Origin: Magnetospirillaceae bacterium
GTDB lineage: Bacteria; Patescibacteriota; Saccharimonadia; Saccharimonadales; EFPC-124
Assembly (NCBI GenBank): GCA_035538835.1
Contig: DATLJN010000076.1
Location: forward strand, 1 to 48,540
Length of the DNA: 48,540 nucleotides
Direction of reading: 5' to 3'
The position numbers and the translations under genes were made by a program. Positions 1,286-43,028 of the stretch are shown here, piece by piece; the stretch's first letter is position 1, and the number at the start of each line of letters is the position of its first letter. Under the pieces are notes generated by a model. The model ran no database searches, was not told where the DNA came from, and saw only the letters and a list, made by a program, of their open reading frames with translations.

Positions 1286-1286
1286 C

Positions 1287-1359
1287 GAGAGTGCCTTTCC
1301 AAGCCGGTCTGATCAAGGTCCTAGACAAACCTGATTATCCCAGCAGGACAGGCACTCTC
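1287..1359. repeat. 10-bp perfect inverted repeat GAGAGTGCCT (1287-1296) / AGGCACTCTC (1350-1359) next to the transposase start
   Basis: Read directly from the sequence. It could fold in the transposase 5' leader or lie near the IS terminus. Confidence 0.5.
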
Positions 1360-1751
1360 ATCACATTTCTACGCCACCGTTTGGACACAATGGACCGACC
1401 CCGTCCACGGATTCAGGCTAAGAGTGAAAACTCGTGACGGTGCCTTGAGGTCAAAGGCTGCCAGTCGGTGGTGTTAAATCCACAAAAGTTGTTGACTAAA
1501 TAAACTAAATAATTAAATCTCAAATGGTGCGGGAACGGTGAACCCTGGTGGCGCGCAAAAGCTCGTGGAAGAACATGTGCGCGCCTCCGTGGACTCACCA
1601 TAACCGGCATATTTACCGGCTTCGTTTATTTAAGCATGTCTTGATCTTGCCCTCAATGTGGTGGGTCTGTTCGTCATGCGTGAGGCCCAGTGGATATGCC
1701 GGTACTCCTCCAAAACCCAAGCGACATAACGGAAGGGAGAGGTATGACTAA

Positions 1752-1940
1752 GTGACCAACGTAGACAAACCCGAGCCGGGCAACCCGATCGTCGTCACCG
1801 GCCAGGAGCGGGCGCAACCGGCGGTGCGGCTGCTTGCCAGAGCTGCCATTGAGCTTGCGCGGCAACAGATTTCAGAATCCAAGCGTCAAGCGGAGACCAC
1901 TGGCGACACGCCCGAGCACGAGGGCGGTCGCCGTGCCTGA
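1752..1940 (+). CDS. small hypothetical protein (62 aa), first gene of the transfer module
   Basis: GTG start is preceded by GGAAGGGAGAGG. The frame is GC3-rich. Its stop overlaps the GTG start of the next gene (GTGCCTGA). Confidence 0.4.
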   Translation: MTNVDKPEPGNPIVVTGQERAQPAVRLLARAAIELARQQISESKRQAETTGDTPEHEGGRRA

Positions 1941-4140
1941 CCTTTGCTGGTTCGAAATCCACCCGCCGCGGGAGGTCGACCTGGCCGCGGTCACGGCGGT
2001 TATCCGCCCGCTGGCATCACGACCACGCTACGGCTTTCCCGCTGCGACGCCGCCCGTCGTCTTCGAAATGTGGAGCATCGGCGGCAAAGTTTCGTGGCTG
2101 CTCGGCATGGACCACCGGCTGTCCGGGAGCCTTCCAGCTCAGCTTCAAGCACACCTGCCGCGCCTTGGCCTGACACCCCAACCGACGCCACAGCGGCCGG
2201 CGCTGTCGGTCGGCGCGACTGTCCGCCTGGCCGGGTTGTCCTCGCCGCTGCGTACCGACACGGCGGGCGCGGTGAGCGCCGAACTTAGCTCCACCCTTTC
2301 GCGGCTGGGCAAAGACGAAGCCGCCTGCGTCCAGTGGGTCGTAGGTTCGAGCCAGTCGCGGGTCATTAGCCCGGCGAAGGTGGAGTTGGCCAAGGCGCTC
2401 GGTTTCCGCCCAGGCCATGGGGCGGTGCCGACACCGACCACGGAGCGGCTGTTCCGTGAGAAGGCCGCCGAACCGCTGTTCGGCGTACTTGGCCGCATCG
2501 CGGCTGCGGCCAAGGATTTCAGTCGCGCCAGCGCCATAGTGCGCGGCGTGGGCAGCGCCCTCCATCTCCTCAGTGCCGAACACGCCAGCCTGCGGGTCGG
2601 CCGGACAGATGCCGGAACCGCGCAGCGGCTCCACGACGCGGCCAAGCCGCCGTTTAGCTGGAGCGCAATCTTGAACGCCAGGGAGCTGGCCGCAGTCATC
2701 GGTTGGCCGACACAGGACGATGTGCCGGACCACCTGCCGACCGTCGGCGGGCACATTAACCTGGTTCCGTACCCGTTGTTGGGGGCGGAGCCGGATGGCG
2801 ATACGCACCCAAGCGAGCGGGTAATCGGGGAGAGCCTGCACCCGGCGCAGCGCGGGCAGCTGGTCACCATGCCGATTGCAAGTGCCAACCACCATACCCA
2901 CCTGATAGGTCCGACCGGTTCCGGAAAATCCACGCTCCTGTGTGGATTAATCCAAGCTGACATCGCGGCTGGACGCGGAACGCTTGTCGTCGAACCGCGT
3001 GGGGATCTCATAGAGGATGTGTTGGCCCGGATTCCAGCCGACCGCCGTGACGACGTGGTGGTCATCGACCCGGCGGACGCCTCGCGCGGCGTTGTCGGAC
3101 TCAATGTGCTTTCCGGACCGCGCGAAACCGCCGAACGCCGTGCCGACGAATTGGTTGGTCTGCTGGCAGCTATGGCTGGCAGCAACTGGGGACCCAGAAC
3201 AGCCGACGTCGCCCTGCACGCAATCCTCACGGCCGCAAGGCTTCCGGACGGCACCCTGCCGGATGTCGTGCAGCTGTTGACTAATCCGGGCTTTCGCCGC
3301 CGGGTGTTGGCGCAGGTTGGCGACCCGCTGGTGCTTTCGCCGTGGTGGGCGGGCTTCGAGGCTCTATCGGACGGTGAGAGAAGCCAATACATAGCGCCGT
3401 TGCTCAATAAACTCCGCGCCTTCCTTTCCAGGGATGTACTGCGGCAGATGACCGGCCAGTCCAGTCCAGCGTTCAGCTTCGACGATCTATTTACCAAGCG
3501 GCGCATTGTTTTGGCCAACCTGAATCGCGGGCTTCTCGGCGGCCCGGTATCCAACCTACTCGGTGCGCTGGTGCTCAGCCAGGTATGGGCGGCGCTGCAA
3601 CGCCGCACGGCTGTGCCGCGCGAACGGCGAAGCGTTACCGGCCTGTATGTGGATGAGTTCCAGGACTACGTGGATATCGTCGGTGGCCTCGACTTTGGCG
3701 ACGCACTCGCCCAGTCGCGCGGCCTGGGCGGAGCGTGGACACTGGCACACCAGCACTTCGCGCAGCTGTCGTCCGGCCTTCGGGCGGCGGTCCTCGCCAA
3801 CGCTCGCTCACGAATCACCTTTCGCCCGGGAACGGACGACGCGAAAGCCCTGGCCGTCGCCTTCGGATCGCGGCTCACCGCAGAAGATTTGCTCCGCCTT
3901 GGCAGCTACGAAGCCGTCGCCCAAATCCACCTGCACGGCCAGCCGACCCAACCATTCGCGGTGCGCACCCTGCCGCTCAGCCCGTGGACGAGTAAACCCG
4001 ACGAACTTCGCCGTTCAAGCGCCGAGCGTTACGGGATGGATGGCGCGGCAGTCGATGCCGCCCTTGCCGAACGCTGGCACGGCACGGGCGGCGGATCTCC
4101 CGATGAGCCCATCGGGGCGAAGCCGAGGCGACGGCCATGA
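1933..4140 (+). CDS. TraD/TraG/VirD4-like (type IV coupling protein-like) P-loop ATPase
   Basis: Walker A is GPTGSGKST and Walker B-like is LYVDEFQDY, followed by TLAHQHFAQL and ANARSRITFR. No N-terminal TM segment is seen. Start is set at GTG 1933, in frame with ORF-track 1834..4140, because the upstream part overlaps the small ORF. Confidence 0.65.
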   Translation: MPDLCWFEIHPPREVDLAAVTAVIRPLASRPRYGFPAATPPVVFEMWSIGGKVSWLLGMDHRLSGSLPAQLQAHLPRLGLTPQPTPQRPALSVGATVRLAGLSSPLRTDTAGAVSAELSSTLSRLGKDEAACVQWVVGSSQSRVISPAKVELAKALGFRPGHGAVPTPTTERLFREKAAEPLFGVLGRIAAAAKDFSRASAIVRGVGSALHLLSAEHASLRVGRTDAGTAQRLHDAAKPPFSWSAILNARELAAVIGWPTQDDVPDHLPTVGGHINLVPYPLLGAEPDGDTHPSERVIGESLHPAQRGQLVTMPIASANHHTHLIGPTGSGKSTLLCGLIQADIAAGRGTLVVEPRGDLIEDVLARIPADRRDDVVVIDPADASRGVVGLNVLSGPRETAERRADELVGLLAAMAGSNWGPRTADVALHAILTAARLPDGTLPDVVQLLTNPGFRRRVLAQVGDPLVLSPWWAGFEALSDGERSQYIAPLLNKLRAFLSRDVLRQMTGQSSPAFSFDDLFTKRRIVLANLNRGLLGGPVSNLLGALVLSQVWAALQRRTAVPRERRSVTGLYVDEFQDYVDIVGGLDFGDALAQSRGLGGAWTLAHQHFAQLSSGLRAAVLANARSRITFRPGTDDAKALAVAFGSRLTAEDLLRLGSYEAVAQIHLHGQPTQPFAVRTLPLSPWTSKPDELRRSSAERYGMDGAAVDAALAERWHGTGGGSPDEPIGAKPRRRP

Positions 4141-5081
4141 CCGCTCACAGCCCTACCGACCGCCCTACCCTTCGCCTCGGGCCAGGGGTAGCCCCGACGT
4201 GCGAGAACACCGAGCAGATCGCATCTACTGTCTCGTCGTCTTCCGCGCAGCTTCAGACGACTCGACCGCCCGGCCGCTCAGGACGGATCGCACGCCTGCG
4301 GGAGCGGATGAGCGGGCGTGACGCAGGGATGCTGCAATCGCTGGCACTGCTTCGCCTGATGACCGGCGGGCAGGTCGAGCGGCTGCATTTCACCGAAGGC
4401 TCGCCCGCCACCCGTGGCCGACGCTGCCGGGCGGCGCTCAAGCGGCTGGCCGAGCTTCGGCTCATCGTGCGGCTCGGGCGTCGCATTGGCGGGGTGCACG
4501 CCGGAAGCGCCGCATATGTCATCGGGCTTTCGGGCTACGGCCAGGCGGTCGTCGATAGCGATGGGCCTATGGGCGGCCGGCGACGGCGCGTCTGGGAAAC
4601 CAAGCCAAGCTTTACCGATCACGTCTTGGCGGTCGCCGACCTCTACGTTCGCCTGGTCGAGACCGAGCGGCTCGATCAGTTGGAGTTGCTCGAATTTCAG
4701 GCAGAGCCGCAGGCTTGGCGGCAATCCACCGGCAGTCACGGGCAAGCGGTGACCCTCAAGCCAGATGGATTCGTCCGGCTCGGCGTTGGCGATATGGAAC
4801 TGAGCAACTTCGTCGAGGTGGACATGGACACCGAAAGTCCGGCCACCCTTGGCCGCAAGATGCAGGCCTACGCCGCCTACTACAGAACAGGTGTCGAACA
4901 ACGCAGGCATGGCGTGTTCCCGCGCGTCTGGTGGCTTGGCTGCTCGGCGCGCAGCGTGGAACGCATCGCTCGCGTGGTACGCGGCCTGCCCCTTGATACT
5001 CAACCGCTGTTCGGCGTCGCTCATCTGGAGGACGCCATCCAGTCCCTAACAACCACGGCAAAGGAGGCCGCTCGTGAATGA
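4137..5081 (+). CDS. replication-relaxation (Replic_Relax) family protein
   Basis: ATGA overlap with the upstream gene. N-terminal winged-helix-like segment [19 protein letters not shown], then KPDGFVRL...FVEVDMDTE and YAAYY motifs as recalled for this family. The family commonly sits next to coupling-protein ATPases on Gram-positive mobile elements. Confidence 0.6.
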
Positions 5082-6136
5082 ACAATGAAACATCCCAACC
5101 CGCTAAACCCGCACTGCCACTGGGGCAAATCCTGATCGGAGATGCCCGTAAGCGGCTGCGCGAGCTGCCAAAGGGCAGCATCGACTGCTGTATTACCAGC
5201 CCACCGTATTACCAACTCCGCGACTACGGCCAGAAGGAGCAGCTCGGACTGGAAGACACCGTGGACGACTGGGCACTGAATCTCGCCGATGTCTGCGACG
5301 ACATCGCCCGTGTGCTCAAGCCGACTGGCGCGCTGTGGCTGAACCTCGGCGACCAGTACTCCAGTCACATCCGGCAGGGAACAGCGTTCAAGAGCTTGTT
5401 GCTGGGACCGCAACGGGTGGCGCTGGAGCTGGCAAAGCGGGGCTGGATCATCCGCAACCAGATCGTCTGGGCAAAGAAAAATCCAATGCCCTCAAGCGTT
5501 TCCGACCGCTTTACCAGTAGCTACGAGGTGCTGCTGTTCTGCGTGCGCTCGCGCCATTACCACTTCGACCTCGACCGGGTACGCCAGCCGCACGTCACTC
5601 CGACGCAGCCGAAGCGGCCGAAATCCCTGGACTACCAATACCTACCGAAACATGCCGTGCCCGAAGGCGGGCTGGTCGACCTCAACCGCGGGCTGGGTGC
5701 ACTCAAGGCGCGGGGTTTGGTTGGACATGATCTTGGGAAGAACCCCGGCGACGTCTGGCATTTGCCCACCGCCGCCTACCATGGCTCCCACTTCGCCACT
5801 TTCCCCGTGAGCCTGGTCGAGAGGCCGCTACTAGCCACCTGCCCCGCGAGGGTCTGCGTGGCTTGCGGAACGCCGTGGAAGCGGCGGCCGACGAACAGAA
5901 ACACCCGACCGGTTCGGCTCGGCACGTTGGTGTCGTGCTGCGAGTGCGAAGCAGAGACCCTGCCAGGCGTTGTGCTCGATCCGTTTCTCGGCAGCGGAAC
6001 CACAGCAGTCGCTGCGGAGACGTACGGCCGGCGGTGGATCGGGATCGAGCTCAACCCTGTGTACGTCGAGCTAGCCAACGCGCGCCTGCACCAGTGGCGG
6101 GCCGAACAGGCTGAGCGACAAAGCAAACGCCCGTAG
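5078..6136 (+). CDS. beta-class N4-cytosine/N6-adenine DNA methyltransferase (orphan)
   Basis: Catalytic motif [11 protein letters not shown] is near the N-terminus and the AdoMet motif [12 protein letters not shown] is near the C-terminus. A Cys-rich insert (CPARVCVAC...CCEC) lies between them. No adjacent endonuclease-like ORF. Confidence 0.8.
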
Positions 6137-6229
6137 CAACGTGTCGGCCTCGTCGGTGCCCTGCGGCCGAATGTCGTCATCCCTAAAAACCAAAGTGGAT
6201 GGCCGGCCGCTCGCACCGAGGAGGAGTCC

Positions 6230-6550
6230 ATGACGGACCCGAAGAGCTCCGGCGTCAAGACGCTGGGCGTGAAGCTCGACGATGCGCTGCACAGCCAGTT
6301 CTCACTGGTTGCAGCGCTCGATGAGCTGAGCCTCAACGACGCCGTGATCCGCGCGGTGGCGCTGTACGTCAAGACCAAGCAGCAAGAGCCGGACTTCGCA
6401 GCCAAGGCCGCTGCCAAGCTCGAGGAGATCGAGCGGGAAGCGGCAGCCAGGCGCGGAGCGATCCAGGCGCTGTTTGGCGGCACTGTGCCAGCCGAGGAAA
6501 CCAAGGCGGCCAAGGGAAGCAAGCGCGGCGGTGGCGAGACGGGCGCGTAG
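6230..6550 (+). CDS. ribbon-helix-helix (CopG/Arc/ParG-like) DNA-binding protein
   Basis: SD GAGGAGGAG lies upstream of the ATG. KTLGVKLDDALHSQFSLVAALDELSLNDAVIRAVALYV fits a strand-helix-helix layout. The C-terminal tail is low-complexity and Ala/Lys/Glu-rich. Confidence 0.5.
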   Translation: MTDPKSSGVKTLGVKLDDALHSQFSLVAALDELSLNDAVIRAVALYVKTKQQEPDFAAKAAAKLEEIEREAAARRGAIQALFGGTVPAEETKAAKGSKRGGGETGA

Positions 6551-6560
6551 GTGCGCCGAA

Positions 6561-6586
6561 GGTGGAGGAGCCTTCGCTCCTCCACC
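6561..6586 (+). terminator. G+C-rich hairpin after the RHH gene (GGTGGAGGAG-CCTTCG-CTCCTCCACC), no T-tract
   Basis: Perfect 10-bp stem beginning 11 nt after the stop codon. This is an actinobacterial-style terminator without a U tail. Confidence 0.4.
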
Positions 6587-6799
6587 GCACTACCCTCACG
6601 AAATTCGAACTCGTATGGGAGTGCTGAGAATTCCGCAGCACACTCTTTCGAGGAATGCTGCAATAATGACCTTGTTAACATAGGAGGAAGTAAATGTATG
6701 ACACAACGCAAAGATGGCTTTGACCAGGACGGACAACGCGATACCCTACCTGACCCTGGCGCGAAATCTCGCGCCAACGGCGATCTGGGAGGGCGGGAA

Positions 6800-7204
6800 A
6801 TGCATTCCACGAATGACGGCGCGAAACGCGCCATGGTCTATATCCGTGTGGCGAGCGCGGAGCATGGTTCAGAGGAACAGGCGCAACAGCAGGAGGTCGC
6901 CTGCAGGGAAACAGCTCAGCGGCTCGGGTTCACGCCCGTTGCCGTATATAGCGATATTGGCAGCACCGAGCGCCCCGGGCTGCGGCGGATGCTGGATGAG
7001 CTGGACACCATCAAGCCGACATCAGTCATAACCTTGGATCCCAGCCGGTTCGGACGAAAATACCAAGAGAACATGGCGGTGATGACTCGGCTGAGAGCGG
7101 CGGGCGTGGAGCCGGTATTTGCGCATGACCCAACCGAGGATCCGCTCGGACTTTCTTGGCGGCGGAGCGAAGCCTCTGTGGTGCGAGAGGCTGATGCAAA
7201 ATGA
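6800..7204 (+). CDS. serine-recombinase (resolvase) catalytic-domain-only protein
   Basis: SD GGGAGG precedes ATG 6800. MVYIRVASAE..., YSDIGSTERPGLRRMLDEL and ITLDPSRFGRK resemble the resolvase N-terminal domain. No HTH or recombinase domain follows. The usual RVS[ST] motif reads RVAS here. Confidence 0.55.
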   Translation: MHSTNDGAKRAMVYIRVASAEHGSEEQAQQQEVACRETAQRLGFTPVAVYSDIGSTERPGLRRMLDELDTIKPTSVITLDPSRFGRKYQENMAVMTRLRAAGVEPVFAHDPTEDPLGLSWRRSEASVVREADAK

Positions 7205-9180
7205 CCGCACATCGCGAACACGAAGCGCCGCCGCTGCACCTACCGCACGACAACGGCACCGACCAGGATCTTGATAGGCGGTCGGCGCGAAGCCTGCGGC
7301 GTGCAGCCAACAGCGAGGTGACGGTTGCTGGTCGGCGCGCCCTTGTCGTGCAGCTCAACGACACCGGTTCTGGTATTGCGGAAATGGCTACCTTCCTACG
7401 GGTAAAACGACCAGGGCTGGAACAACTGACCGCTACCCATATCCCCAGGGTGGCGATATATCTTCGGGTCAGCACCGAGGAGCAAGCCCGAGTCGGCGGC
7501 CAAGCCGAGGGCTTTTCGATCCCGTACCAACGCGACGCTTGCCTGACGAAGGTGCGCGACTTGGGCGGCATCCTGGCAGGCGAATACGTGGATGCCGGAG
7601 AGAGCGCAAAATCGGCTGACCGTCCCGAGCTGCAACGAATGCTTAAGGACCTCAAGGCCAAACGGATCGACTACGTCCTCGTCCACAAGATCGACCGGCT
7701 GGCCCGCAACCGTGCCGACGACGTCGCCATTAATACGGCCATCGCGGCGGCCGGTGCCAAGCTCATCTCGGTGGCCGAGCCGGTCGATGAAACCCCGGCG
7801 GGCAAGCTGCTCTACAACATGATGGCCGGGGTTGCCCAGTACCACTCCGACAACCTGGCCGTCGAGGTGCTCAAAGGCATGGTCACCAAGGCAAAGATGG
7901 GTGGTACGCCCTACCGTGCGCCACTGGGCTACCTCAACCACCAGGAAATCCACGATGGCATCGTGGTGCGCAGTATCGTGCTCGACCCTGAGCGAGCGCC
8001 GCTGATCCGCTGGGCCTTCGAGCAATATGCCCTGGGCATCTGGTCGTTGAGCCGCTTGGTGGACGCCTTGAATTCGCAAGGCCTGACCTCCCGGCCGACG
8101 CCCAAGCGGCCAGCCAAGCCGATCTCGCTCAACGGCATCCATTTCCTGATGCGCAACCCCTACTACATCGGTGTGGTGCCCTACCGGGGTGTGTTCCACG
8201 AAGGCAAACACGAGCCGCTGGTCAGCGTAGAACTGTGGCTACGGGTCCAAGACGTACTGACCGCCCACCGCGTCTCGGGCGACAAACAGTTCAAATACGA
8301 GCATTATCTCAAGGGCAGTATCTTTTGTGGTCAATGCGGTGCCCGGCTGGTCTACAGCCGCAACCGCGGCCGGGGCGGGGTCTACGAATATTTCGACTGC
8401 CTGTCCAAGAAAACCAAGCGACGCCCCTGCACCCAACGAGCTGTGCGCCTGCATAAGGTCGAAGCTGGCGTCGAACGGCTCTACGAGCACTTCCATCTTT
8501 CGGCTGCAAGGGCCACGCAGATCCGGGACGCGGTGCTCACCGAACTCGCGGCCGACCGTGACGAAGCAGACCGAGAAGTCCAGCGTGCGCTCAAGCGACT
8601 CCGCGCGGCGACTGACCAGCAGGCCAAACTGCTCCAGGCGCACTACGCCGGGGCGGTGCCGCTCGAGCTCATGAAGGCCGAGATGGAGCGGTTGACCAGC
8701 GAGAAAGCCCAAGCCGAGCGTTCCATCGCCAGCGCCAAGTCTTCTGTCGCCGACCTGGAAACCACGCTCAACGCGGCGCTAAAGATTGCTACCGAATGCC
8801 ATACCTATTACCACGAGGCTGAACCAGCCATCCGCCGCAGGCTCAACCAAGGCTTCTTCAAGAAGCTATATATACATGAAGACGGCCAGGTTGACCGCTT
8901 TGAGCTGACCGAGCCGTTTGCCACGCTGCTTGACCGCAGCCTGCCAGGCGTGCTTGCCAACCAGCGGCAGTCCCGGCTCGCCGGGGACCTTGCAGAGCAC
9001 CAGGAGCACAGGCTCGACACCGAAATCACAGCCGAAGACCGCACCAGCCCGTCAGCGGTACTGGCAAAAACCTTCACATGTGTGTCGAAAACAGACCAAC
9101 CGGACGGCGGTGCCATCCGGTTGGGTTTGAACATCCATGATGTGGTGCTGGGAGAGGGAGTCGAACCCCCGAAGACATAA
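7201..9180 (+). CDS. large serine recombinase (integrase)
   Basis: The catalytic domain shows AIYLRVSTEEQ, ADRPELQRML and VHKIDRLARN. It is followed by a recombinase domain, a zinc ribbon (CGQCGARL...DC...C) and a long coiled-coil. ATGA overlap with the upstream gene. Alternative starts are ATG 7384 or GTG 7450. The last ~40 codons lie in mid-G+C DNA, and the stop (9178-9180) falls inside antisense tRNA-Tyr. Confidence 0.9.
   Translation: MTAHREHEAPPLHLPHDNGTDQDLDRRSARSLRRAANSEVTVAGRRALVVQLNDTGSGIAEMATFLRVKRPGLEQLTATHIPRVAIYLRVSTEEQARVGGQAEGFSIPYQRDACLTKVRDLGGILAGEYVDAGESAKSADRPELQRMLKDLKAKRIDYVLVHKIDRLARNRADDVAINTAIAAAGAKLISVAEPVDETPAGKLLYNMMAGVAQYHSDNLAVEVLKGMVTKAKMGGTPYRAPLGYLNHQEIHDGIVVRSIVLDPERAPLIRWAFEQYALGIWSLSRLVDALNSQGLTSRPTPKRPAKPISLNGIHFLMRNPYYIGVVPYRGVFHEGKHEPLVSVELWLRVQDVLTAHRVSGDKQFKYEHYLKGSIFCGQCGARLVYSRNRGRGGVYEYFDCLSKKTKRRPCTQRAVRLHKVEAGVERLYEHFHLSAARATQIRDAVLTELAADRDEADREVQRALKRLRAATDQQAKLLQAHYAGAVPLELMKAEMERLTSEKAQAERSIASAKSSVADLETTLNAALKIATECHTYYHEAEPAIRRRLNQGFFKKLYIHEDGQVDRFELTEPFATLLDRSLPGVLANQRQSRLAGDLAEHQEHRLDTEITAEDRTSPSAVLAKTFTCVSKTDQPDGGAIRLGLNIHDVVLGEGVEPPKT
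9098..9122 (-). terminator. probable intrinsic terminator of the tRNA-Thr/tRNA-Tyr operon
   Basis: The minus strand reads AACCGGA-loop-TCCGGTT, followed by GGTCTGTTTTCG and a second T-run (GGTTTTTGCC). It lies 20 nt downstream of the tRNA-Tyr 3' end. Confidence 0.4.
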
Positions 9181-9228
9181 GTCGTCTGATTTACAGTCAG
9201 ATGCGTTTGACCACTTCGCTATCCCAGC
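9143..9228 (-). tRNA. tRNA-Tyr (anticodon GTA), class II with long variable arm, CCA encoded
   Basis: Minus strand: GCTGGGA-TA-GCG..CGC-A-TCTGA-CTGTAAA-TCAGA-long variable arm-GGGGG-TTCGACT-CCCTC-TCCCAGC-A-CCA. The acceptor and anticodon stems pair perfectly. Confidence 0.9.
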
Positions 9229-9246
9229 ATGCCTTAAAAATAAATA

Positions 9247-9323
9247 TGGAGCCGACGGAGGGATTCGAACCCACGACCCGCTGTTTACAAAACAGCCGCT
9301 CTGGCCAACTGAGCTACGTCGGC
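9247..9323 (-). tRNA. tRNA-Thr (anticodon TGT), CCA encoded
   Basis: Minus strand: GCCGACG-TA-GCTC..GAGC-G-GCTGT-TTTGTAA-ACAGC-GGGTC-GTGGG-TTCGAAT-CCCTC-CGTCGGC-T-CCA. There is one T:T mismatch in the T stem. Confidence 0.85.
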
Positions 9324-35454: not shown

Positions 35455-36642
35455 TTATTTTACGATCTTAGTTACCACACCAGCACCAACGGTGCGGCCG
35501 CCTTCGCGGATTGCGAAGCGTAGACCTTGCTCCATAGCAATTGGGGCAAGCAGTTTTACCTTAAAGGTGATTGTATCACCAGGCATAACCATCTCTTTGT
35601 CGGCTGGGAGTTCGACCTCACCAGTTACATCAGTAGTACGGAAGTAGAACTGTGGTTTGTAACCCTTGAAGAATGGGGTATGACGGCCGCCTTCTTCTTT
35701 GGTAAGCACGTAAACCTCAGATTCAAATTCGGTGTGTGGCGTAATGCTGCCAGGTTTAGCGATAACTTGACCACGTTCGATGTCGTCGCGTTCAATGCCG
35801 CGGAGCAGCAATCCAGCGTTGTCACCAGCTTGGCCTTGGTCGAGCTGTTTCTTAAAGGCTTCGATGCCAGTTACCACTGTCTTACGAGCAGCTTCTTGGA
35901 TACCGACGATTTCAACTTCTTCGTTAATCTTAACGATACCAGTTTCGATACGGCCGGTAGCAACCGTGCCACGACCCTTAATACTAAAGACGTCTTCGAT
36001 TGGCATCAGGAACGGCTTATCGAGTTCGCGCTTTGGCTCTTCGATGTAGTCGTCCATAGCTTTAACGAGTTCCATAATGGCGTCTTCGTATGTAGCGTCG
36101 CCTTCAAGGGCTTTAAGAGCTGAACCCTTAATGATTGGGGCTTCGCGGTCAAAGCCGTTCTTGGCCAGGAGGTCACGAACGTCTTCCTCAACCAGTTCAA
36201 CCAGCTCAGCGTCGGCCATATCCATCTTGTTTAGGAACACAAGAATCTTTGGCACACCAACCTGTTTTGCAAGTAGCACGTGTTCGCGGGTTTGTGGCAT
36301 TGGGCCGTCGGCGGCAGATACAACCAAGATTGCACCGTCTACCTGTGCGGCACCGGTAATCATGTTCTTAACGTAGTCGGCGTGACCAGGCATGTCGACG
36401 TGCGCGTAGTGGCGCTTTTCGCTTTCGTATTCCTGGTGAGAAGTTGCGATGGTAATACCACGCGCCTTTTCTTCTGGTGCGTTGTCGATTTGGTCATACG
36501 CAACTGGTTTGTTAACTGCGCTCGGCATTTTTTTTGCGAGAACGCTAGTGATTGCCGCAGTCAAAGTAGTTTTACCGTGGTCAACGTGACCCATGGTACC
36601 AACGTTGACGTGCGGTTTGCTACGGTCAAATGTGTCAGCCAT
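35455..36642 (-). CDS. tuf: elongation factor Tu
   Basis: [18 protein letters not shown] and NKMD GTPase motifs, with full-length collinearity to EF-Tu. Confidence 0.97.
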
Positions 36643-36713
36643 TTATATGCTCCATTATTTTCTTAATTTCGCGCATGAGGTAGCAGAGCCACCGGATGCG
36701 ACGTATGTTCCAG

Positions 36714-36743
36714 ATTATACAAGAGAAGCCCCCGAGGTGTAAA
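36714..36743 (-). promoter_or_regulatory. sigma70-like promoter for tuf
   Basis: Minus strand has TTTACA, an 18-nt spacer, then TATAAT with a TG extension, about 70 nt upstream of the tuf start. Confidence 0.4.
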
Positions 36744-36760
36744 GACTTTGTACAAAAGCG

Positions 36761-36789
36761 GAGGTCCGGAACTGCTCGCCCCGGACCTC
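36761..36789 (-). terminator. G+C-rich perfect hairpin GAGGTCCGG-11 nt-CCGGACCTC after the HTH gene
   Basis: 9-bp stem beginning 11 nt after the stop at 36800. No T-tract. Confidence 0.4.
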
Positions 36790-36799
36790 TCTCGTGCTC

Positions 36800-37192
36800 T
36801 TATTCGGTCGTGATAGGGACACGACGCGCGCGCCGGCGATTTTGGATCTTCTTTCGCTGGAGCCGCTGTCCTTTGAGTTGTCGCGGGTCGACCAACCTGA
36901 CCAGGCTAGGCCGAAGATCCAACCCAACAACGCGAGCATAGCGCTGCATTGTCGAAAGCCGACCATCCTCGAGAAGGTCCGCCTCGCGCCGCTTAACCAG
37001 CCGCGGCAACCAGTACCACACTGTCGCTCGCCTAAACCAGCCGGGTCTGTGTAGCCAGCCAATTTTGGAAGCAAACTCGTAATCGGTCATACCTAGCGCC
37101 CGGCGCATGGCGTGCAGGTGCGAAACCAACATATAGCGGTTGTACGAATCGACTTGCTCGCCTGACAATACAGGCACAGCGCCGTCGGTCAT
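36800..37192 (-). CDS. XRE-like helix-turn-helix protein with basic C-terminal tail
   Basis: SD GAGGAG is present. LHAMRRALGMTDYEFASKIG...STMQRYARVVGLDL resembles an HTH_XRE layout. G+C is elevated. Confidence 0.45.
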   Translation of the reverse strand: MTDGAVPVLSGEQVDSYNRYMLVSHLHAMRRALGMTDYEFASKIGWLHRPGWFRRATVWYWLPRLVKRREADLLEDGRLSTMQRYARVVGLDLRPSLVRLVDPRQLKGQRLQRKKIQNRRRARRVPITTE

Positions 37193-37269
37193 GGTAACAC
37201 TCCTCAGACTGAGGCCTACAGGGGCACGGTTATAATACGGTTAGTAGCCACAAAAAGCAATTTCAGGAC

Positions 37270-37887
37270 TTAAGCCGCGATCGCTTGGCTTTGAGGACCC
37301 GTATAGACTTCGCGTAAATCGGTTTCGAGTTCACTAATAACTGTGGCCGCCGTGAGCTGTGTGGCATATTCAGCGGCAGTACGACTATCGGCCATTTGGT
37401 TAACCGTATGCTCAAGATAGTCATGCAAAATAACAGCGTAATCTTCTAGCGCGGCTCGTAAATATACGGTTTGGTCAGGCTGTGGATGTTCATCACCTAA
37501 AAGAGATGCCGCGTAGTTTATGGCTAAACTACTACATTCAAAAGCCTCATTGGGGCTAAAAAGGGCATCGGGCGCCGTAATTACGTAGGCAGCTACCCTC
37601 AGTAACAACCGTTCACGTTCTTGAGTAGTGATTTCTGCTGATTTAAGTACACGCACACCATATTCTGCGGGCCGCGGCCTCGGAAGATGGTCGGTAGCCA
37701 GGAACGCCAGCTCTTCGGCCAAGTCAGGAGAAAACCTTAATGCGCGCGCAAATAATCGTTTGAGCGACGCTTCAATTGCTGCAGCATCGCCTTCAGCAAG
37801 CTCAGTAAGGGTGGCCTCGAAGACCGAGTTAATTGAATCCTGTTCTGCCGCTGCCTCGTTGCCGGCCGGTTCTTGTCTTTGTTCCAA
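37270..37887 (-). CDS. hypothetical acidic, predicted all-helical protein (205 aa)
   Basis: TTG start with AGGAG 9 nt upstream. No recognisable motif. Confidence 0.4.
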   Translation of the reverse strand: MEQRQEPAGNEAAAEQDSINSVFEATLTELAEGDAAAIEASLKRLFARALRFSPDLAEELAFLATDHLPRPRPAEYGVRVLKSAEITTQERERLLLRVAAYVITAPDALFSPNEAFECSSLAINYAASLLGDEHPQPDQTVYLRAALEDYAVILHDYLEHTVNQMADSRTAAEYATQLTAATVISELETDLREVYTGPQSQAIAA

Positions 37888-38250
37888 AACTAATAACTCC
37901 TGTAGCAGCTAGGCTAACAGGTATTTGGATCTTACGCAACTATATACTAAAAATAGACGATAGAGCTACAGATATAGATCATCCAAATTTGACTTTAAAG
38001 TTCACCCCGCACATGCAATGTGGCCCATAAAACTGAACCGCAGTCTTCGAATGCAGAAGGAGACCTGTGGGCATATAACTCTTAGCGATCTGCATTCAGG
38101 TGATCAAACGCGCGCACGAACCAGCCACATTGTTGTGATGCCCATTTCGCCTTAGTTGGCGTGACACCTCATCTGACTGTCACAGATGATCTGGTGGGCC
38201 AGGCACACGCGTCCCTCATCTTAAGCTTGTGCGGTTGGGGAGATTGGATT

Positions 38251-38277
38251 CAACCTCCCGCGCGGAGGTTGTTTTTT
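38251..38277 (+). terminator. plus-strand intrinsic terminator with no annotated plus-strand gene (CAACCTCC-CGCGC-GGAGGTTG-TTTTTT)
   Basis: 8-bp G+C-rich stem followed by six T on the plus strand only. It overlaps the stop codon of the minus-strand ORF 38276..38725. Confidence 0.5.
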
Positions 38278-38725
38278 ATAGTCCGCGTAAATCGGCAATA
38301 ATATTTAATAGTTCATCAGCGGTTTCGTGGAGATACATCCACCTTAATTGAGCAATGACACCCTCATCCTGCGTCCCTTCAGGGCCATAAATCAGATCTA
38401 AAAATTTGTCGGCATCATCTAGTTCAAGCCACAACTGTGCTTTTGCAACTTCATAACCTATCCGCGCCCGTTGGTTATTACCCCCTGCAAGGCTCTTTTC
38501 GGCGGTTAGTTCATAACCCTCCAGCAGTTCATGATGCCGTGGATTTGTCTTGTCAAAGCCGTTATCTGCGATGATTTGTGCAACTAGCTGCCGACGCGCC
38601 TCGCCGGCCTGAGGAGATTCTACATAATCCAATACTTCAACAACTGTGCCGAGCCTTTCATTGATGACTTCAAGTTCAGGATCGAGGCGTGCATAATGTT
38701 CGTGCGACTGATCTTGTTCGGTCAT
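38276..38725 (-). CDS. hypothetical acidic helical protein (149 aa)
   Basis: ORF-track frame. There is no SD, but a TATAGT box ends 7 nt before the ATG, so the mRNA may be leaderless. Confidence 0.4.
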   Translation of the reverse strand: MTEQDQSHEHYARLDPELEVINERLGTVVEVLDYVESPQAGEARRQLVAQIIADNGFDKTNPRHHELLEGYELTAEKSLAGGNNQRARIGYEVAKAQLWLELDDADKFLDLIYGPEGTQDEGVIAQLRWMYLHETADELLNIIADLRGL

Positions 38726-38836
38726 ATGTTTACTATATATAAACTTTCAAGAACGTGCAGTATCAATTTCCATTCTTGGAAATTTACAAATAATAAATAA
38801 GTGTTATAATTATAACGTTCTTTGACAAAATAATTC

Positions 38837-38886
38837 GTTACTGGTAGCTGTAAGGATATGGGCATATTCTTACAGCTACCAGTAAC
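38837..38886. repeat. 50-bp near-perfect palindrome (18-bp perfect arms GTTACTGGTAGCTGTAAG / CTTACAGCTACCAGTAAC, extendable to 24 of 25 symmetric positions)
   Basis: Read directly. It lies in the AT-rich divergent intergenic region, ending 25 nt before the SD of the serpin-like gene. Confidence 0.8.
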
Positions 38887-38922
38887 AGCTGGAGTAAGTA
38901 GCAAGACTTGAGAGGAGATCCA

Positions 38923-39882
38923 ATGTCTGGAATCCGAGACTTGGGCCGCACGAGTGGTACTGTCCCCGCCAGCACCGACCTTCCAACAATCACAGGCAGT
39001 ATCGCCTTCACGAACGGGCCCATCGCCCGTGCGCTGAACGAGTACGCCCTGGTCACTGGACTGAGCGGTCTGGAAGCGCTGCAGCTCGTTGGTACCAATC
39101 CCGGTCAGGCCGAGTTGATCGACTGGATCGTCACGCACTACGCGCAGATCGCCCATCTGCGGGATCTCACCTCGCTGGCAAGCCGCGACTACGCGGTGCT
39201 CAACAGCTTCCTGGAGGCCCACGGGTTCTCCCCGCTGTTCACACCGTTTCCTCAAAGCGATGTCGGCATCACCGCGATCCTCGACGCCCCCATGAAGTGG
39301 GTCGAGGCCGGAGAGCGCACCACCATCACCCGCATGGCCGGTAGTCAGCAGGCCACCTACCCCGCGTTCAAGCTCAAGAGCACTGGCGCGAAACGCCAGC
39401 ACCTTTTCGACGCCGGACCCTTCACCGACCGGGTCGTCATCAAAACTCAGAATGGTCACTTCGTCTACTTGGGCATGCTGCCCGAGGATATGGAAGGGCC
39501 GCGCGACGGCGCCGCCGTCCTGAAATTGGCGCGCCAAATGCTGGGAGCTCGGACTCAGGACACCCACGATCCGGCGGGAGTCATTCTGCCGATGATCAGC
39601 TTCGACAACGTCAGCGAGCTGCCGTGGCTCAACGGCCTCGCTGTTGGCAAGAGCGACACCCTTAACCAGTGCCGCCAGCACGTCAAGTTCTACATGAACG
39701 AGATTGGCGCGCGCATCTCCGCTGCTTTCGCCGGCGTGATGTTTCGTAGCGCGCCGCCTGCGCCGTATGTGATCAACCAGCACTTCGTGCTGGCCATCGC
39801 CGACGACACAACGCCAACCACAGTGCTGTACCTGCACCCCGACGATAGTTGGGCTGAGCCGCCCGCTGGAGTCATCCAGTAA
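38923..39882 (+). CDS. serpin-like protein (short N-terminal region), G+C-rich
   Basis: SD GAGGAG lies 5 nt before ATG 38923. The C-terminal ~200 aa are collinear with serpins as recalled. PMKW matches the s3A KGKW region, and MLPEDMEG matches LPDEG. ILPMISFDNVSELPWLNGLAV matches LPKLSI..DLK..L..LG. NEIGARISAAFAG is a hinge-like ExGxxxxAA. YVINQHFVLAI matches 10 of 11 positions of the PROSITE serpin signature as I recall it. Confidence 0.55.
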   Translation: MSGIRDLGRTSGTVPASTDLPTITGSIAFTNGPIARALNEYALVTGLSGLEALQLVGTNPGQAELIDWIVTHYAQIAHLRDLTSLASRDYAVLNSFLEAHGFSPLFTPFPQSDVGITAILDAPMKWVEAGERTTITRMAGSQQATYPAFKLKSTGAKRQHLFDAGPFTDRVVIKTQNGHFVYLGMLPEDMEGPRDGAAVLKLARQMLGARTQDTHDPAGVILPMISFDNVSELPWLNGLAVGKSDTLNQCRQHVKFYMNEIGARISAAFAGVMFRSAPPAPYVINQHFVLAIADDTTPTTVLYLHPDDSWAEPPAGVIQ

Positions 39883-39897
39883 CAATGTCAACGAGCC

Positions 39898-39918
39898 GCC
39901 GGGGGACCCATCCCCGGC
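39898..39918 (+). terminator. G+C-rich hairpin GCCGGGG-GACCCAT-CCCCGGC after the serpin-like gene
   Basis: 7-bp perfect stem, 16 nt after the stop. Confidence 0.35.
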
Positions 39919-39979
39919 AGTTCCCCAGAATCACTCAGCCGCATGGGTGGTTGTGGGGAGCTAACTTAATAAATTCTAC

Positions 39980-40009
39980 AAAAAACACCTCGCAGTTGAG
40001 GTGTTTTTG
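39980..40009. terminator. bidirectional terminator shared by fusA and the serpin-like gene (AAAAAACACCTC-GCAGTT-GAGGTGTTTTT)
   Basis: The stem is flanked by A- and T-tracts, 16 nt from the fusA stop. Confidence 0.65.
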
Positions 40010-40024
40010 CACGTTTCGTGAAAC

Positions 40025-42103
40025 TTATTTCGCGCGTTTGCTAATAATCGCTTCAGCCACGTTGTTTGGCACTTCTTCGTAATGTGCAAGTTCCATACTG
40101 GAGCTGGCGCGACCTTGTGTTGAGCTACGCAGTTCGGTAGTGTAACCAAACATCTCAGCCAAAGGCACCATTGCGGTAATCTCTTTGACGTTACCGGCGA
40201 GGTCTTCCATGCTGTCAATACGACCGCGTTTGCTGTTAAGGCCGCCAATGACATCACCCATGAAGTCTTCGGGGGTAACGACGACGACTTTCATAACTGG
40301 TTCGAGTAGCACTGGCGAAGCTTTTTTAACACCTTCGCGGGCAGCCAGCGCACCAGCCATTTTAAAGGCCATCTCGTTGGAGTCAACTTCGTGATAGCTA
40401 CCGTCGTACAAGGCAACTTTTACGTCAACTACTGGGTAGCCGGCGATAACACCGCCATTCAGGGTTTCTTCGATACCGTTTTTAACAGGGGTGCGATATT
40501 CTTGCGGAACCACACCACCTTTAATCTCGTCGATAAATTCGAAGCCCTTGCCGGTTTCGTTTGGTTCAACGCGGATCCAAACGTCACCGTACTGGCCGCG
40601 ACCACCAGATTGTTTGATGTACTTACCTTGTACTTCGACCATCTTCTTGATGGTTTCGCGGTAAGCCACTTGCGGCTGCCCAACATTAGCTTCGACTTTA
40701 AACTCGCGCTTCATGCGGTCAACAATGATCTCGAGGTGAAGCTCGCCCATACCACTAATGATGGTCTGGCCGGTTTCTTCGTCGGTGTGCACTCTAAAGG
40801 TCGGGTCTTCTTCGGCAAGGCGCTGCAGGGCGATGCCCATTTTTTCTTGGTCGGCCTTGGTTTTAGGTTCGATAGCGATGCTGACTGGTGGATCTGGGAA
40901 GTCGATGCTTTCAAGAACAATCGGATTAGATGGGTCGCACAGCGTGGTACCAGTGGTGGTACCCTTAAGGCCCACAACGGCAGCAATGTCGCCGGCGCCG
41001 ATTTCGGTGATGTCTTCGCGCTTGTCGGCGTGCATTCGCAGCAGGCGACCAACTCGTTCTTTTTCGCCAGTGCTGGCGTTAAAGATATAGCTACCAGCGC
41101 TGAGCTTACCGCTGTACACACGTACAAAAATCAATTTACCAACAAACGGGTCGGTGGCAACTTTAAAGGCAAGACTGGCCATTGGTTCGGATTCGGCAGG
41201 TTTGCGTTCGATTTTGTCGCCAGTCTTTGGGTGTGTGCCCCAAATGCTACTTACATCAAGCGGACTTGGGAGGTAATCAACAACAAGGTCAAGCACCTTT
41301 TCGACGATCACGCCACGGCCATCGCCACCAGTTACAATATAAAATTCACCAGTCAAAACAGATGCGCGGATTGCAGCTTTAAGTTCGGCTTCGGTAATTG
41401 CCGTTTCGCCACCTTCGAGGTATTTCTCGAACAGTGTGTCGTCGGCTTCGACGGCCGCTTCAACCAGCAATGTGCGGGCGTTTTTGCACTTTTCGAGCAT
41501 ATCAGCAGGCACATCGCCTTCGACCAACTCATGGTCGGCGAATTCTTTATAGGTGTAAGCCTTCATGCTGACCAAATCGACAACACCGTTGATTTCCTGT
41601 TCAAAACCGATCGGCAGGTGGATTGGCAGCGCCCGCTTGCTAAGACGCGCGTGGATACTTTCTAAAGACTTGTAAAAGTCCCCACCCGTTGAGTTGATCT
41701 TATTAATAAAGCACACGCGTGGTACGCCGTATTTGTTAGCCTGGCGCCAAACGGTTTCGGTTTGGGCTTCGACACCCATTTTGCCGTCGAACACTACAAC
41801 TGCGCCGTCGAGCACGCGCAAAGAACGCTCAACTTCGGCCGTAAAGTCGATGTGTCCAGGGGTGTCGATAATGTTAATCTTGTGCTCTTTCCAGAAACAC
41901 GTCACAGCAGCGCTAGTAATAGTAATACCACGTTCGCGTTCCTGCTCCATCCAGTCAGTGGTTGTTTCGCCTTCGTGCACAGCGCCAATCTTGTGGCTCA
42001 GGCCGGTTCGGTACAAAATACCTTCGGTGGTGGTTGTTTTGCCCGCATCAATGTGAGCAATAATACCAATGTTACGGAACATGTTTAGGGGGACGTTGGC
42101 CAT
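40025..42103 (-). CDS. fusA: elongation factor G
   Basis: [20 protein letters not shown] and NKIN motifs. The protein is 692 aa and collinear with EF-G. Confidence 0.97.
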
Positions 42104-42239: not shown

Positions 42240-43028
42240 TCAGACGACAAACTTGACGGGGACGTCGTACCTGCCGCCTCGTTCGCCTATCACCTCAGCG
42301 TGGTGCCGGTCGCCAAACGGATCAACAAACCACACCACCCCAGGATTCTGTGTTGGAGAACTCACGAGCGGCGCCAGATACAGTGCCGGGCCACTCGTTT
42401 TGGGCTGTAGCGCCTGGAATAGGTGCGGTTGCCGCATATTCATACCCGCCGGCCGCCGCGGCAACAGATATACGCCCTGTGGTACCTGCGGCGAGTGAAC
42501 CGCTGGCCGTGACGTTTGTGCGTGTCTCGGTAAGCGAACATCGAGCACAAGGCCATTCCGTCCGTGCAATGTTGCTTCAAAGACTTGGGCGTTGAGGTCC
42601 CGCAAGGTGGCACGATACTGCCCCCGACGCCCAAGGACGTCAGTCTGCACAAGGACCACCTGGCTCGGTACACCGGCTGGGTGAATACTCAGGAACATGC
42701 CGGTCTGCATAGCTGAACACCATGTCGACCAGTTCGGCCCCGTGTACGTAGCACTTTGAACCTGTTTTACCTTTTTCCTCGCAGTGCCTGGGTAACGAAC
42801 GTCAACCGTCAACTCGCCAGTTGTTTGGTCAACAGTGAATCCAACAAAATTCTTGAGGGTTCCACCGTCCACCAGTCGGCCATGTACGGTAACATATCGG
42901 CCGTCGTTACTTATCGAAAAGCCGTCGATGCGAACATCGCCAATCTCCGGTACGAACATCGGCTGGCGATTCACCGCAAACACCGCAAACTCCTCGGCCG
43001 TGAGCGTTACTACGTCGGGCGATCCCAT
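42240..43028 (-). CDS. hypothetical protein (262 aa), G+C-elevated, no recognisable domain
   Basis: Strong SD GGAGAGGAGAG lies before the ATG. The frame is GC3-rich. Confidence 0.5.
   Translation of the reverse strand: MGSPDVVTLTAEEFAVFAVNRQPMFVPEIGDVRIDGFSISNDGRYVTVHGRLVDGGTLKNFVGFTVDQTTGELTVDVRYPGTARKKVKQVQSATYTGPNWSTWCSAMQTGMFLSIHPAGVPSQVVLVQTDVLGRRGQYRATLRDLNAQVFEATLHGRNGLVLDVRLPRHAQTSRPAVHSPQVPQGVYLLPRRPAGMNMRQPHLFQALQPKTSGPALYLAPLVSSPTQNPGVVWFVDPFGDRHHAEVIGERGGRYDVPVKFVV

Follow-up and report, generated by a model that had tools for sequence, protein, structure and literature searches.

Serpins are a textbook example of metastability in proteins, which raises the structural question of the minimum scaffold that their mechanism can do with. 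Prokaryotic members of the superfamily (PF00079, MEROPS I4), such as thermopin of Thermobifida fusca (PDB 1mtp), tengpin, miropin and chloropin, have 370–430 residues. CrmA of cowpox virus (PDB 1f0c), a naturally minimised intracellular serpin of 341 aa, is among the smallest known; it has no helix D, its P side has one residue fewer than is normal and its P1 residue is an Asp that serves for caspases. The vertebrate PAI-1 is secreted, has 379 aa, all nine helices and a P1 Arg, and turns spontaneously into a latent, loop-inserted form. Reactive-centre loops normally vary with the target. The subject of this analysis is a 319-aa protein of the same superfamily, encoded between fusA and tuf on contig DATLJN010000076.1 (the window, that is the whole stretch analysed, 48,540 nt), whose serpin-like traits had been noticed by eye in an earlier note on this DNA. 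A precedent for an undersized serpin that inhibits is Spi1C, a 214-aa protein cloned from a marine metagenome, which shares shortness and metagenomic origin with the present proteins; it is reported to inhibit trypsin and chymotrypsin and is described as close to partial I4 serpins (PMC3225930). The most comprehensive serpin phylogeny that was found left out any sequence that fell short of the median length by over 25% (PMC8233489).

The window protein and its relatives (hereafter the family) share with prokaryotic serpins the core topology, a module of canonical length running from strand (s) s5A through the hinge, the loop and s1C to s4B and s5B, the Trp of the breach, and the LP motifs of s3B and s2C/s6A. 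They differ in size (~290–320 aa), in the absence of helix (h) A, in having ~45 fewer residues before s3A and one helix for hG and hH, and in a hinge that reads G-A-R-[VA] instead of G-T-E-A. The Pfam model reaches only their last ~70 positions and, unlike classical prokaryotic serpins, they are known so far only from metagenome-derived sequences. Compared to CrmA, they are ~50 residues smaller and bacterial, have lost more elements or other ones (helix A among them) and carry Arg as candidate P1. The fold and its probable mechanism are already known; new are the size class, the loss of helix A and ~45 residues, the scale of a family lying largely below annotation thresholds, its presence in Saccharibacteria-type genomes and its dedicated leader. 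No paper on serpins of Saccharibacteria or of the Candidate Phyla Radiation (CPR), or on serpin families below 300 aa, was found in a literature search that did not cover subscription journals.

The serpin-fold homology of the 319-aa protein is close to certain. It does not emerge from the single sequence: the protein itself matches nothing in Pfam even at E ≤ 10, so that the hmmscan with PF00079 by which the earlier note had hoped to establish the relationship came out empty and on that criterion alone the idea would have fallen, and NCBIfam, PHROGs and PADLOC give nothing either. This counts against the assignment, and a phmmer search of PDB sequences yields only insignificant matches, to InhA. 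The link needs family profiles or structure. Eleven full-length homologues were found at 53–61% identity, and a 12-sequence profile retrieves 988 related clusters at E ≤ 1e-3 from 1.84 billion representatives searched (clusters of ~290-aa proteins defined at 50% identity; median length 296 aa). Against the PDB the same profile reaches PAI-1 at E = 2.4e-4, the best 18 of its 19 matches being serpins. A 62-sequence profile reaches it at E = 2e-10, serpins making up all of the best 60 of 122 matches, with alignments that extend from just past s3A through the C-terminus; a word-indexed search with this profile was saturated and made few additions. PAI-1 is the best sequence-profile match, 62–71 aligned residues spanning s5A to s5B, and similarity to it is undetectable outside the C-terminal third. 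When 163 family sequences were aligned by hhalign to alpha1-antitrypsin, PAI-1 and ovalbumin (the alpha1-antitrypsin sequence being 100% identical to PDB 2qug_A), the match had Prob 96% and E = 4e-9 over 274 columns, and placed query residues 26–309 on residues 49–392 of alpha1-antitrypsin. PF00079 itself is matched by 50 of 62 sampled relatives at E ≤ 0.1 (best E = 8.3e-9); the matches examined span only model positions ~297–367 of 370 and many lie below the 27-bit curated cut-off. Since family profiles, hhalign and the structural search described below all reach serpins, the resemblance is more than a product of chance.

The peptides quoted in the earlier note were all found in the translation, namely PMKW (residues 123–126), VVIKTQNGHFVYLGMLPEDMEG, VILPMISFDNVSELPWLNGLAV, FYMNEIGARISAAFAG, FAGVMFRSAPPAP and YVINQHFVLAI. 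The last deviates from the PROSITE serpin pattern PS00284 (s1C/s4B; applied as a regular expression) at a single position, His287, where Pro, Ser or Thr is required, exactly as had been remarked. The full pattern is matched by 64 of the 163 wider-family members and by none of the 12 close relatives, the subfamily of the window protein carrying His287 in place of Pro. Two further matches are mentioned for completeness: PDB entry 9hbk, labelled "superinfection exclusion protein", was rejected as a phage protein because it is the vaccinia K2 serpin, and sub-threshold matches to the Pfam family divDNAB (PF20307) occur in 5 of 62 members (best E = 4.8e-6).

An AlphaFold2 (AF2) model of the window protein, built from the 62-sequence alignment without templates, has a mean predicted local distance difference test score (pLDDT) of 91.3 and a predicted template-modelling score of 0.80. 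Its listed Foldseek matches in the PDB are serpins only (E = 4e-11, probability 1.0, template-modelling score (TM) ~0.5). Thermopin (E = 8.5e-10, TMq 0.52) and CrmA (E = 4e-10, TMt 0.52) are among the top matches, the best being cleaved (relaxed) serpins, and the model resembles the latent form of PAI-1. A search of a viral library returned mainly serpins of eukaryotic viruses (poxviruses, giant viruses). A first AF2 run with 12 sequences had a pLDDT of 55 and an unreadable topology; Foldseek nonetheless gave serpins. The order of strands in the final model, s3A-s4C-s3C-s1B-s2B-s3B-...-s2C-s6A-s5A-(s4A)-s4B-s5B, is that of serpins (coordinates in the table below). Trp126 is invariant in the 62-sequence alignment and lies 61 residues ahead of Pro187, a spacing identical to that of W194 and P255 in alpha1-antitrypsin. 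Pro223 belongs to an LP(K/M) motif, Glu260 and Gly262 align with the hinge residues E342 and G344, and Gln252, kept in 152 of the 163 sequences, occupies the place of the shutter residue His334. At s4B and s5B the wider family has the consensus P-F-L-x-W ... P-L-F-x-G-Y, which is the canonical serpin C-terminus. The landmarks that the earlier note had recognised by eye hold. Of what a predicted structure had been expected to reveal, the fold with its sheet A and serpins as sole matches was obtained; the loop is inserted in the model instead of exposed.

The N-terminal region is indeed shortened as the earlier note had it, with other counts: ~113 residues precede s3A against ~180 in alpha1-antitrypsin, where ~117 and ~160 had been given. 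The model shows a disordered tail (1–25), helices at 31–44, 60–76 and 90–99 and one 6-residue strand (82–87). The stretch from hB to s3A thereby holds two helices and one short strand, against hC–hF with s2A and s1A in classical serpins, ~45 residues fewer, and the full complement of hA–hI, s1A and s2A is not present. Helix A is absent, since the hhalign alignment begins at s6B/hB, and the core is kept from there through sheets A, B and C to s5B. On the identity of the further lost elements the indications diverge. The distance from the conserved Asn94 to W126 (32 residues, against 36 between Asn158 and W194) favours a retained helix F. The hhalign order and the chain topology favour retention of hD-s2A-hE-s1A. 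Full-length hhalign places hB, hD, s2A and hE and then puts residues 114–131 on helix F, contrary to the modelled strand and to the W126/P187 spacing. The N-terminal part on its own is not alignable to serpins (Prob ~1%), nor does a single-sequence template give a reliable alignment. Note that some members (P0023, P0043, P0071, P0110, P0121, P0129, P0137 and P0155) have N-terminal extensions of ~70–190 residues, for a total of 365–479 aa.

Conservation of the hinge and of the reactive-centre-loop equivalent was counted over the 163 family sequences. Asn is found at position 259 in 135 of them, Glu at 260 (P17) in 116, Gly at 262 (P15) in 157, Ala at 263 (P14) in 148, Arg or Lys at 264 (P13) in 123, Val or Ala at P12 in 122, Ala at P9 in 134 and Ala or Gly at P7 in 128. 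The family hinge consensus is G-A-R-[VA]-[EK]-[SVA]-A and the even P positions are hydrophobic or small across the family. In the window protein Gly262, Ala263 (P14), Ala267 and Ala268 fit the rule for inhibitory serpins; Ile265 at P12 and Phe269 at P8 are bulky. From Gly262 to Phe288 there are 27 residues, equal to alpha1-antitrypsin (26–33 from Gly to Phe in the family). Position 275 is Arg or Lys in 116/163 sequences (71%), followed by Gly, Ser or Cys; it lies 14 residues from the Gly in 95 of 113 sequences, and the stretch past it varies in length. The Arg-Ser pair that had been placed at about P1-P1' is present at 275–276 and its basic residue is shared by most relatives, the exact bond being uncertain by one residue because an ungapped alignment to PAI-1 puts Arg275 at P2 and Ser276 at P1. 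Judged from the sequences, cleavage would occur after Ser276, or else the P side would have one residue less than normal.

The AF2 model places residues 262–275 confidently as an inserted strand (pLDDT ~97 for 261–270), and not as the exposed reactive-centre loop that had been anticipated. The insertion shows, at the level of the model, that 262–275 fits sheet A; it does not distinguish a resting state from an end state. A subclade of two proteins that are 47% identical, P0013 (L003 6001-6900) and P0165 (L095 7001-7903), has a loop of ~21 residues, ~9 shorter, without the G-A-R hinge. Their genes are syntenic beside a cytochrome oxidase (cox) operon and still have the leader. A loop of this length could not insert, which shows that s4A is dispensable for the fold and that inhibition cannot be common to all family members; the two proteins are probably non-inhibitory, to judge by their sequences, and they count modestly against s4A as a built-in strand.

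The function to which we give somewhat the better chance is classical suicide-substrate inhibition by a compact cytoplasmic serpin, expressed as a stand-alone unit under control of the leader. For the inhibitory step itself, sequence and model put the chances at about even. The target would be an intracellular serine (or cysteine) protease with specificity for Arg, which would cut at Arg275-Ser276; residues 262–275 would then insert as s4A beside s5A and hold the protease captive in the acyl-enzyme state. Expression would presumably be controlled by the leader hairpin. The near-invariant Gly262, the small P14 Ala263, Ala at P9, the hydrophobic or small even P positions, the canonical total loop length and the frequent Arg or Lys at 275 speak for inhibition. 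The main alternative, less likely, is a non-inhibitory serpin fold, latent-like from the start, in which 262–275 is a permanent strand of a six-stranded sheet A, the protein has a binding role as scaffold, chaperone or ligand carrier, and Arg275 is structural or engaged in binding. It would account for the strand modelled at 262–275 with its high pLDDT and for the cleaved (relaxed) serpins being the closest structures, for the bulky P12 and P8 and the basic P13, for a basic residue kept in 71% of a very divergent family, which is unusual for reactive-centre loops, and for a subclade that lost the loop and is yet conserved and syntenic. It accounts less well for P15 Gly and P14 Ala being near invariant, for even positions that are small or hydrophobic as in inhibitors and for the canonical total loop length; the short-loop subclade also shows s4A to be dispensable for the fold, and a template-free AF2 run may just return the lowest-energy serpin state.

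Several observations weigh against suicide-substrate inhibition by this protein. Its hinge is off the inhibitory consensus (Arg and not Glu at P13, Ile at P12 where relatives have Val or Ala, Phe at P8) and its P side counts 14 residues between P15 and P1 where 15 are usual. The fixed distance from Gly to Arg would be expected of an ordinary beta-strand as well and does not discriminate, and the inserted 262–275 together with the matches to cleaved serpins fits a permanently inserted, non-metastable fold equally well. The TM-score to serpins is no higher than ~0.5, and the lost N-terminal elements (helix F or the s2A/hE region) are not assignable from alignments. A conserved partner was not found either: the 15 family-gene contexts inspected have no shared neighbour and no recurrent protease.

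The window protein is predicted to be cytoplasmic. It has no signal peptide or membrane segment (the maximal 12-residue hydropathy in its first 45 residues is 0.86, by a heuristic and not by SignalP), and a transmembrane-like segment is seen by the same kind of heuristic in only 2 of 163 family members. It therefore differs from secreted or periplasmic bacterial serpins (miropin, siropins), which are recognised by a signal peptide or lipobox. The lack of a signal peptide disfavours an extracellular form of the role on which the earlier note had speculated, a shield against proteases of a partner or host.

The gene is predicted to be a self-contained transcription unit with promoter, structured leader, Shine-Dalgarno (SD) sequence and terminator. 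A -10-like box is found 2–9 nt upstream of the leader start in most leader-bearing homologue loci, and the layout that they share is made of this box, GTTCTTTGACA, a variable spacer, a hairpin whose basal stem is conserved and whose distal part varies, a second ACUGG and the SD, which is purine-rich and in aligned position in homologue leaders. The hairpin occurs in 11 of 16 distinct loci, in 10 of them with the 5' motif, including genes for ~30%-identical proteins (leader equivalents in L001-L004, L006, L087, L090, L091, L095 and L099). Pairing holds for 90.3% of the cells in its alignment, and compensatory changes are seen at 16 of the 22 pairs; none of 500 shuffles equals the observed covariation, slid controls reach ≤0.18 against 0.58, and RNAalifold predicts the identical helix. 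The window leader folds with z = -6.2. A covariance model of the leader, run over 537 kb of related sequence, has its matches in front of family genes and nowhere else. Rfam 15 gives only sub-threshold hairpin noise to miRNA models for the leader, and a scan of the whole window at the gathering thresholds returns two tRNAs only. The sense-strand G-U pairs and the variable spacing of the arms favour an RNA over a repressor operator, and the leader may be an undescribed cis-regulatory RNA. A dimeric-repressor operator had been considered and was disfavoured by the variable half-site spacing and by G-U pairs found on the sense strand only. Pairing of GTTCTTTGACA with the SD (an anti-SD role) was rejected, duplex energies being no better than those of shuffled motifs, and no GAAC...GTTC box of LexA type was seen in the leader by eye. 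The terminator-like hairpin between the convergent serpin-like gene and fusA has -14.6 kcal/mol on the plus and -16.1 kcal/mol on the minus strand, with z about -4 on both.

A bolder proposal, advanced tentatively, is that these proteins are the smallest working serpins, widespread in Saccharibacteria-type bacteria and in some of their phages. They would keep the mousetrap mechanism without helix A and part of hC-hF/s1A-s2A and trap an Arg-specific intracellular protease, for instance in phage-host or epibiont-host conflict, their expression being gated by the dedicated, hitherto undescribed structured 5' leader. If this were true, a conserved protease inhibitor of the cytoplasm, equipped with a regulatory RNA of its own, would suggest that the ultra-small epibionts of the CPR control proteolysis by a circuit so far overlooked. 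The ~1,000 clusters form a large branch of the superfamily that is invisible to standard annotation. Being ~25% smaller than classical serpins, the family would offer a minimal system for the question of which scaffold the mechanism requires; the leader hairpin and the gene-specific excess of GC at third codon positions (GC3) raise questions in their own right.

Table. Coordinates of the serpin-like gene, of its predicted signals and structural elements, and of neighbouring features in the window (residues refer to the 319-aa protein; ORF, open reading frame; UTR, untranslated region)
Feature	Nucleotides	Residues	Strand	Source or remark
tuf	35455-36642		-	opposite strand to serpin-like gene
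Spacer ORF, 130 aa	36800-37192		-	shares the 3.4-kb fusA-tuf spacer (36643-40024)
Spacer ORF, 205 aa	37270-37887		-	shares the 3.4-kb fusA-tuf spacer
Spacer ORF, 149 aa	38276-38725		-	shares the 3.4-kb fusA-tuf spacer
Antisense ORF, 389 aa	38722-39891		-	covers the whole serpin-like gene; overlaps the start of the 149-aa ORF by 4 nt
Sigma-70-type promoter-like site	38783..38810		+	TTTACA, 16-nt spacer, TATAAT, TG before -10; 11/12 matches; putative function
Conserved leader start GTTCTTTGACA	38816..38826		+	probably at or near the transcript 5' end; ≤2 changes in 10/16 distinct loci
5'-UTR hairpin, 24-nt arms, basal stem UUACUGGUAGCUG / CAGCUACCAGUAA	38837..38886		+	inverted repeat in the window and most homologue loci
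ORF	38908..39882		+	324 aa from TTG (program ORF list)
SD GAGAGGAG	38910..38917		+	5 nt ahead of ATG 38923; read off the sequence
Coding sequence, compact serpin-fold protein	38923..39882		+	319 aa from in-frame ATG at 38923
s3A	39262..39300	114-126	+	AF2 strand; ends in breach Trp126 (PMKW)
s4C		131-139		AF2 model
s3C		142-151		AF2 model
s1B		156-162		AF2 model
s2B		169-175		AF2 model
s3B		180-184		AF2 model
Single helix in place of hG and hH		196-208		AF2 model
s2C		210-223		AF2 model
s6A		225-232		AF2 model
s5A (TLNQCRQHVKFYM)	39655..39696	245-258	+	AF2 strand; aligned to s5A of PAI-1 and alpha1-antitrypsin
Hinge (E260, G262, A263, R264), reactive-centre-loop equivalent and s1C segment	39700..39783	260-287	+	conservation, alignment, AF2
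Strand at s4A position		262-275		AF2 model; beside s5A
Candidate P1 Arg275, then Ser276	39745-39747	275	+	conservation, alignment
s4B and s5B (FVLAIADDTTPTTVLYL)	39784..39834	288-304 (s4B 288-294, s5B 297-304)	+	alignments and AF2 model
Bidirectional intrinsic-terminator-like hairpin	39981..40008		.	CACCTC/GAGGTG stem flanked by an A-run and a T-run; separates the convergent serpin-like gene and fusA
fusA	40025-42103		-	opposite strand to serpin-like gene

The ORF list confirms the 319-aa gene as real and its position between fusA and tuf as the earlier note had described them. The epibiont-type host proposed there is likewise borne out: the EF-G of the window is 75–80% identical to that of Candidatus Saccharibacteria metagenome-assembled genomes, which identifies a Saccharibacteria genome, with ~50% GC in the ribosomal operon. 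The public label "Magnetospirillaceae bacterium" conflicts with the EF-G, probably through mis-binning of the contig; relatives labelled "Verrucomicrobiae" may be no more reliably named. In related Saccharibacteria the gap between fusA and tuf measures 114–183 nt in five loci and 0.5–4.4 kb in others. The long gaps (L007 8077-12465, L008 8071-11247, L015 3305-6282) hold unrelated cargo, including membrane proteins and an aminotransferase-like gene, and no serpin-like gene was found in the fusA-tuf gaps of these loci. The spacer is an insertion hotspot in Saccharibacteria. Since it is variable, fusA is followed by the terminator-like hairpin and tuf has its own promoter-like site, the position of the serpin-like gene reflects an insertion-tolerant spacer and not a functional link, and the meaning that had been read into its place among translation genes falls away. 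The neighbours of the family gene, for the most part housekeeping genes, differ from one to the next of 15 other loci.

The gene has a GC content of 0.62 (~0.50 around it) and a GC3 of 0.79. The same excess over the flanks is found in 14 of 15 distinct homologue loci, with 0.51–0.70 against 0.46–0.58 when the window is included and GC3 values of 0.59–0.99. GC-rich family genes are those of L001-L006, L087, L088, L090, L091, L093, L095, L097, L099 and L103, the phage-like L102 being the exception. In all five loci with measured neighbours (0.40–0.92) the family gene has the highest GC3 of the neighbourhood. The excess is not ordinary expression bias, because GC3 is only 0.50–0.54 in tuf and fusA, and it may stem from repeated transfer from GC-rich donors, from gene-specific selection or from biased gene conversion. 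The high GC, which extends to the loci of ~30%-identical relatives, is thereby no evidence for a recent one-off acquisition.

The same composition would be cited, together with the missing Pfam match and the variable spacer with its three unassigned ORFs, in favour of a serpin that was acquired horizontally and of which a remnant is left, in decay or without function, the short N-terminus being a truncation. This is improbable: the ~290-aa architecture is common to hundreds of clusters aligned full length, the ORF is intact and accompanied by promoter, SD, terminator and covarying leader, the AF2 model is confident, and the two ~47%-identical members are syntenic beside the cox operon. The three spacer ORFs have no family match in Pfam, NCBIfam, PHROGs or PADLOC and no tblastn match in 86 loci (L001-L086). 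A 19-nt direct repeat (84% identical; at 37304 and 38277) is located close to the 3' end in two of these ORFs, and no direct or inverted repeats were found flanking the serpin-like gene as scars of a mobile element.

That the protein has no relation to serpins, its motifs arising by chance or the real gene being the long antisense ORF, is very improbable. The existence of this ORF and the lack of a direct family match for the window protein would be in its favour; profile searches of the PDB, hhalign and Foldseek on the pLDDT-91 model all point to serpins only. The antisense ORF has no family match below E = 0.02; a sense frame with a GC3 of 0.79 is expected to cast such a shadow, and this is its best explanation.

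Some family members may be phage-borne. The gene of P0184 (L102 1-9251, gene 3340-4251) is part of a dense same-strand array with strong matches to the phage families NAMPT (E = 1e-174), Thg1 (E = 3e-87), phrog_11026 and phrog_29643, and this locus has neither the leader nor the GC excess. No tblastn match was obtained for the window protein in GenBank phages and PLSDB plasmids or for P0184 in phages. Collection scans for the close subfamily gave none in GTDB genomes or IMG/VR and four metagenome loci.

Two further regions of the window are of note. Upstream of fusA a 262-aa ORF (42240-43028, minus strand; GC 0.575; no family match) makes a second interruption of the str operon. Positions 1-9323, with 62–67% GC, code for an FtsK/TrwB-like ATPase (1834-4140), a Replic_Relax protein (4137-5081), an N6/N4 DNA methylase (5078-6136), a small resolvase (6551-7204) and, with its gene ending against tRNA-Tyr (9143-9228) and tRNA-Thr (9247-9323), a large serine recombinase (7201-9180). 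The block has the look of an integrated element of conjugative type whose composition is foreign.

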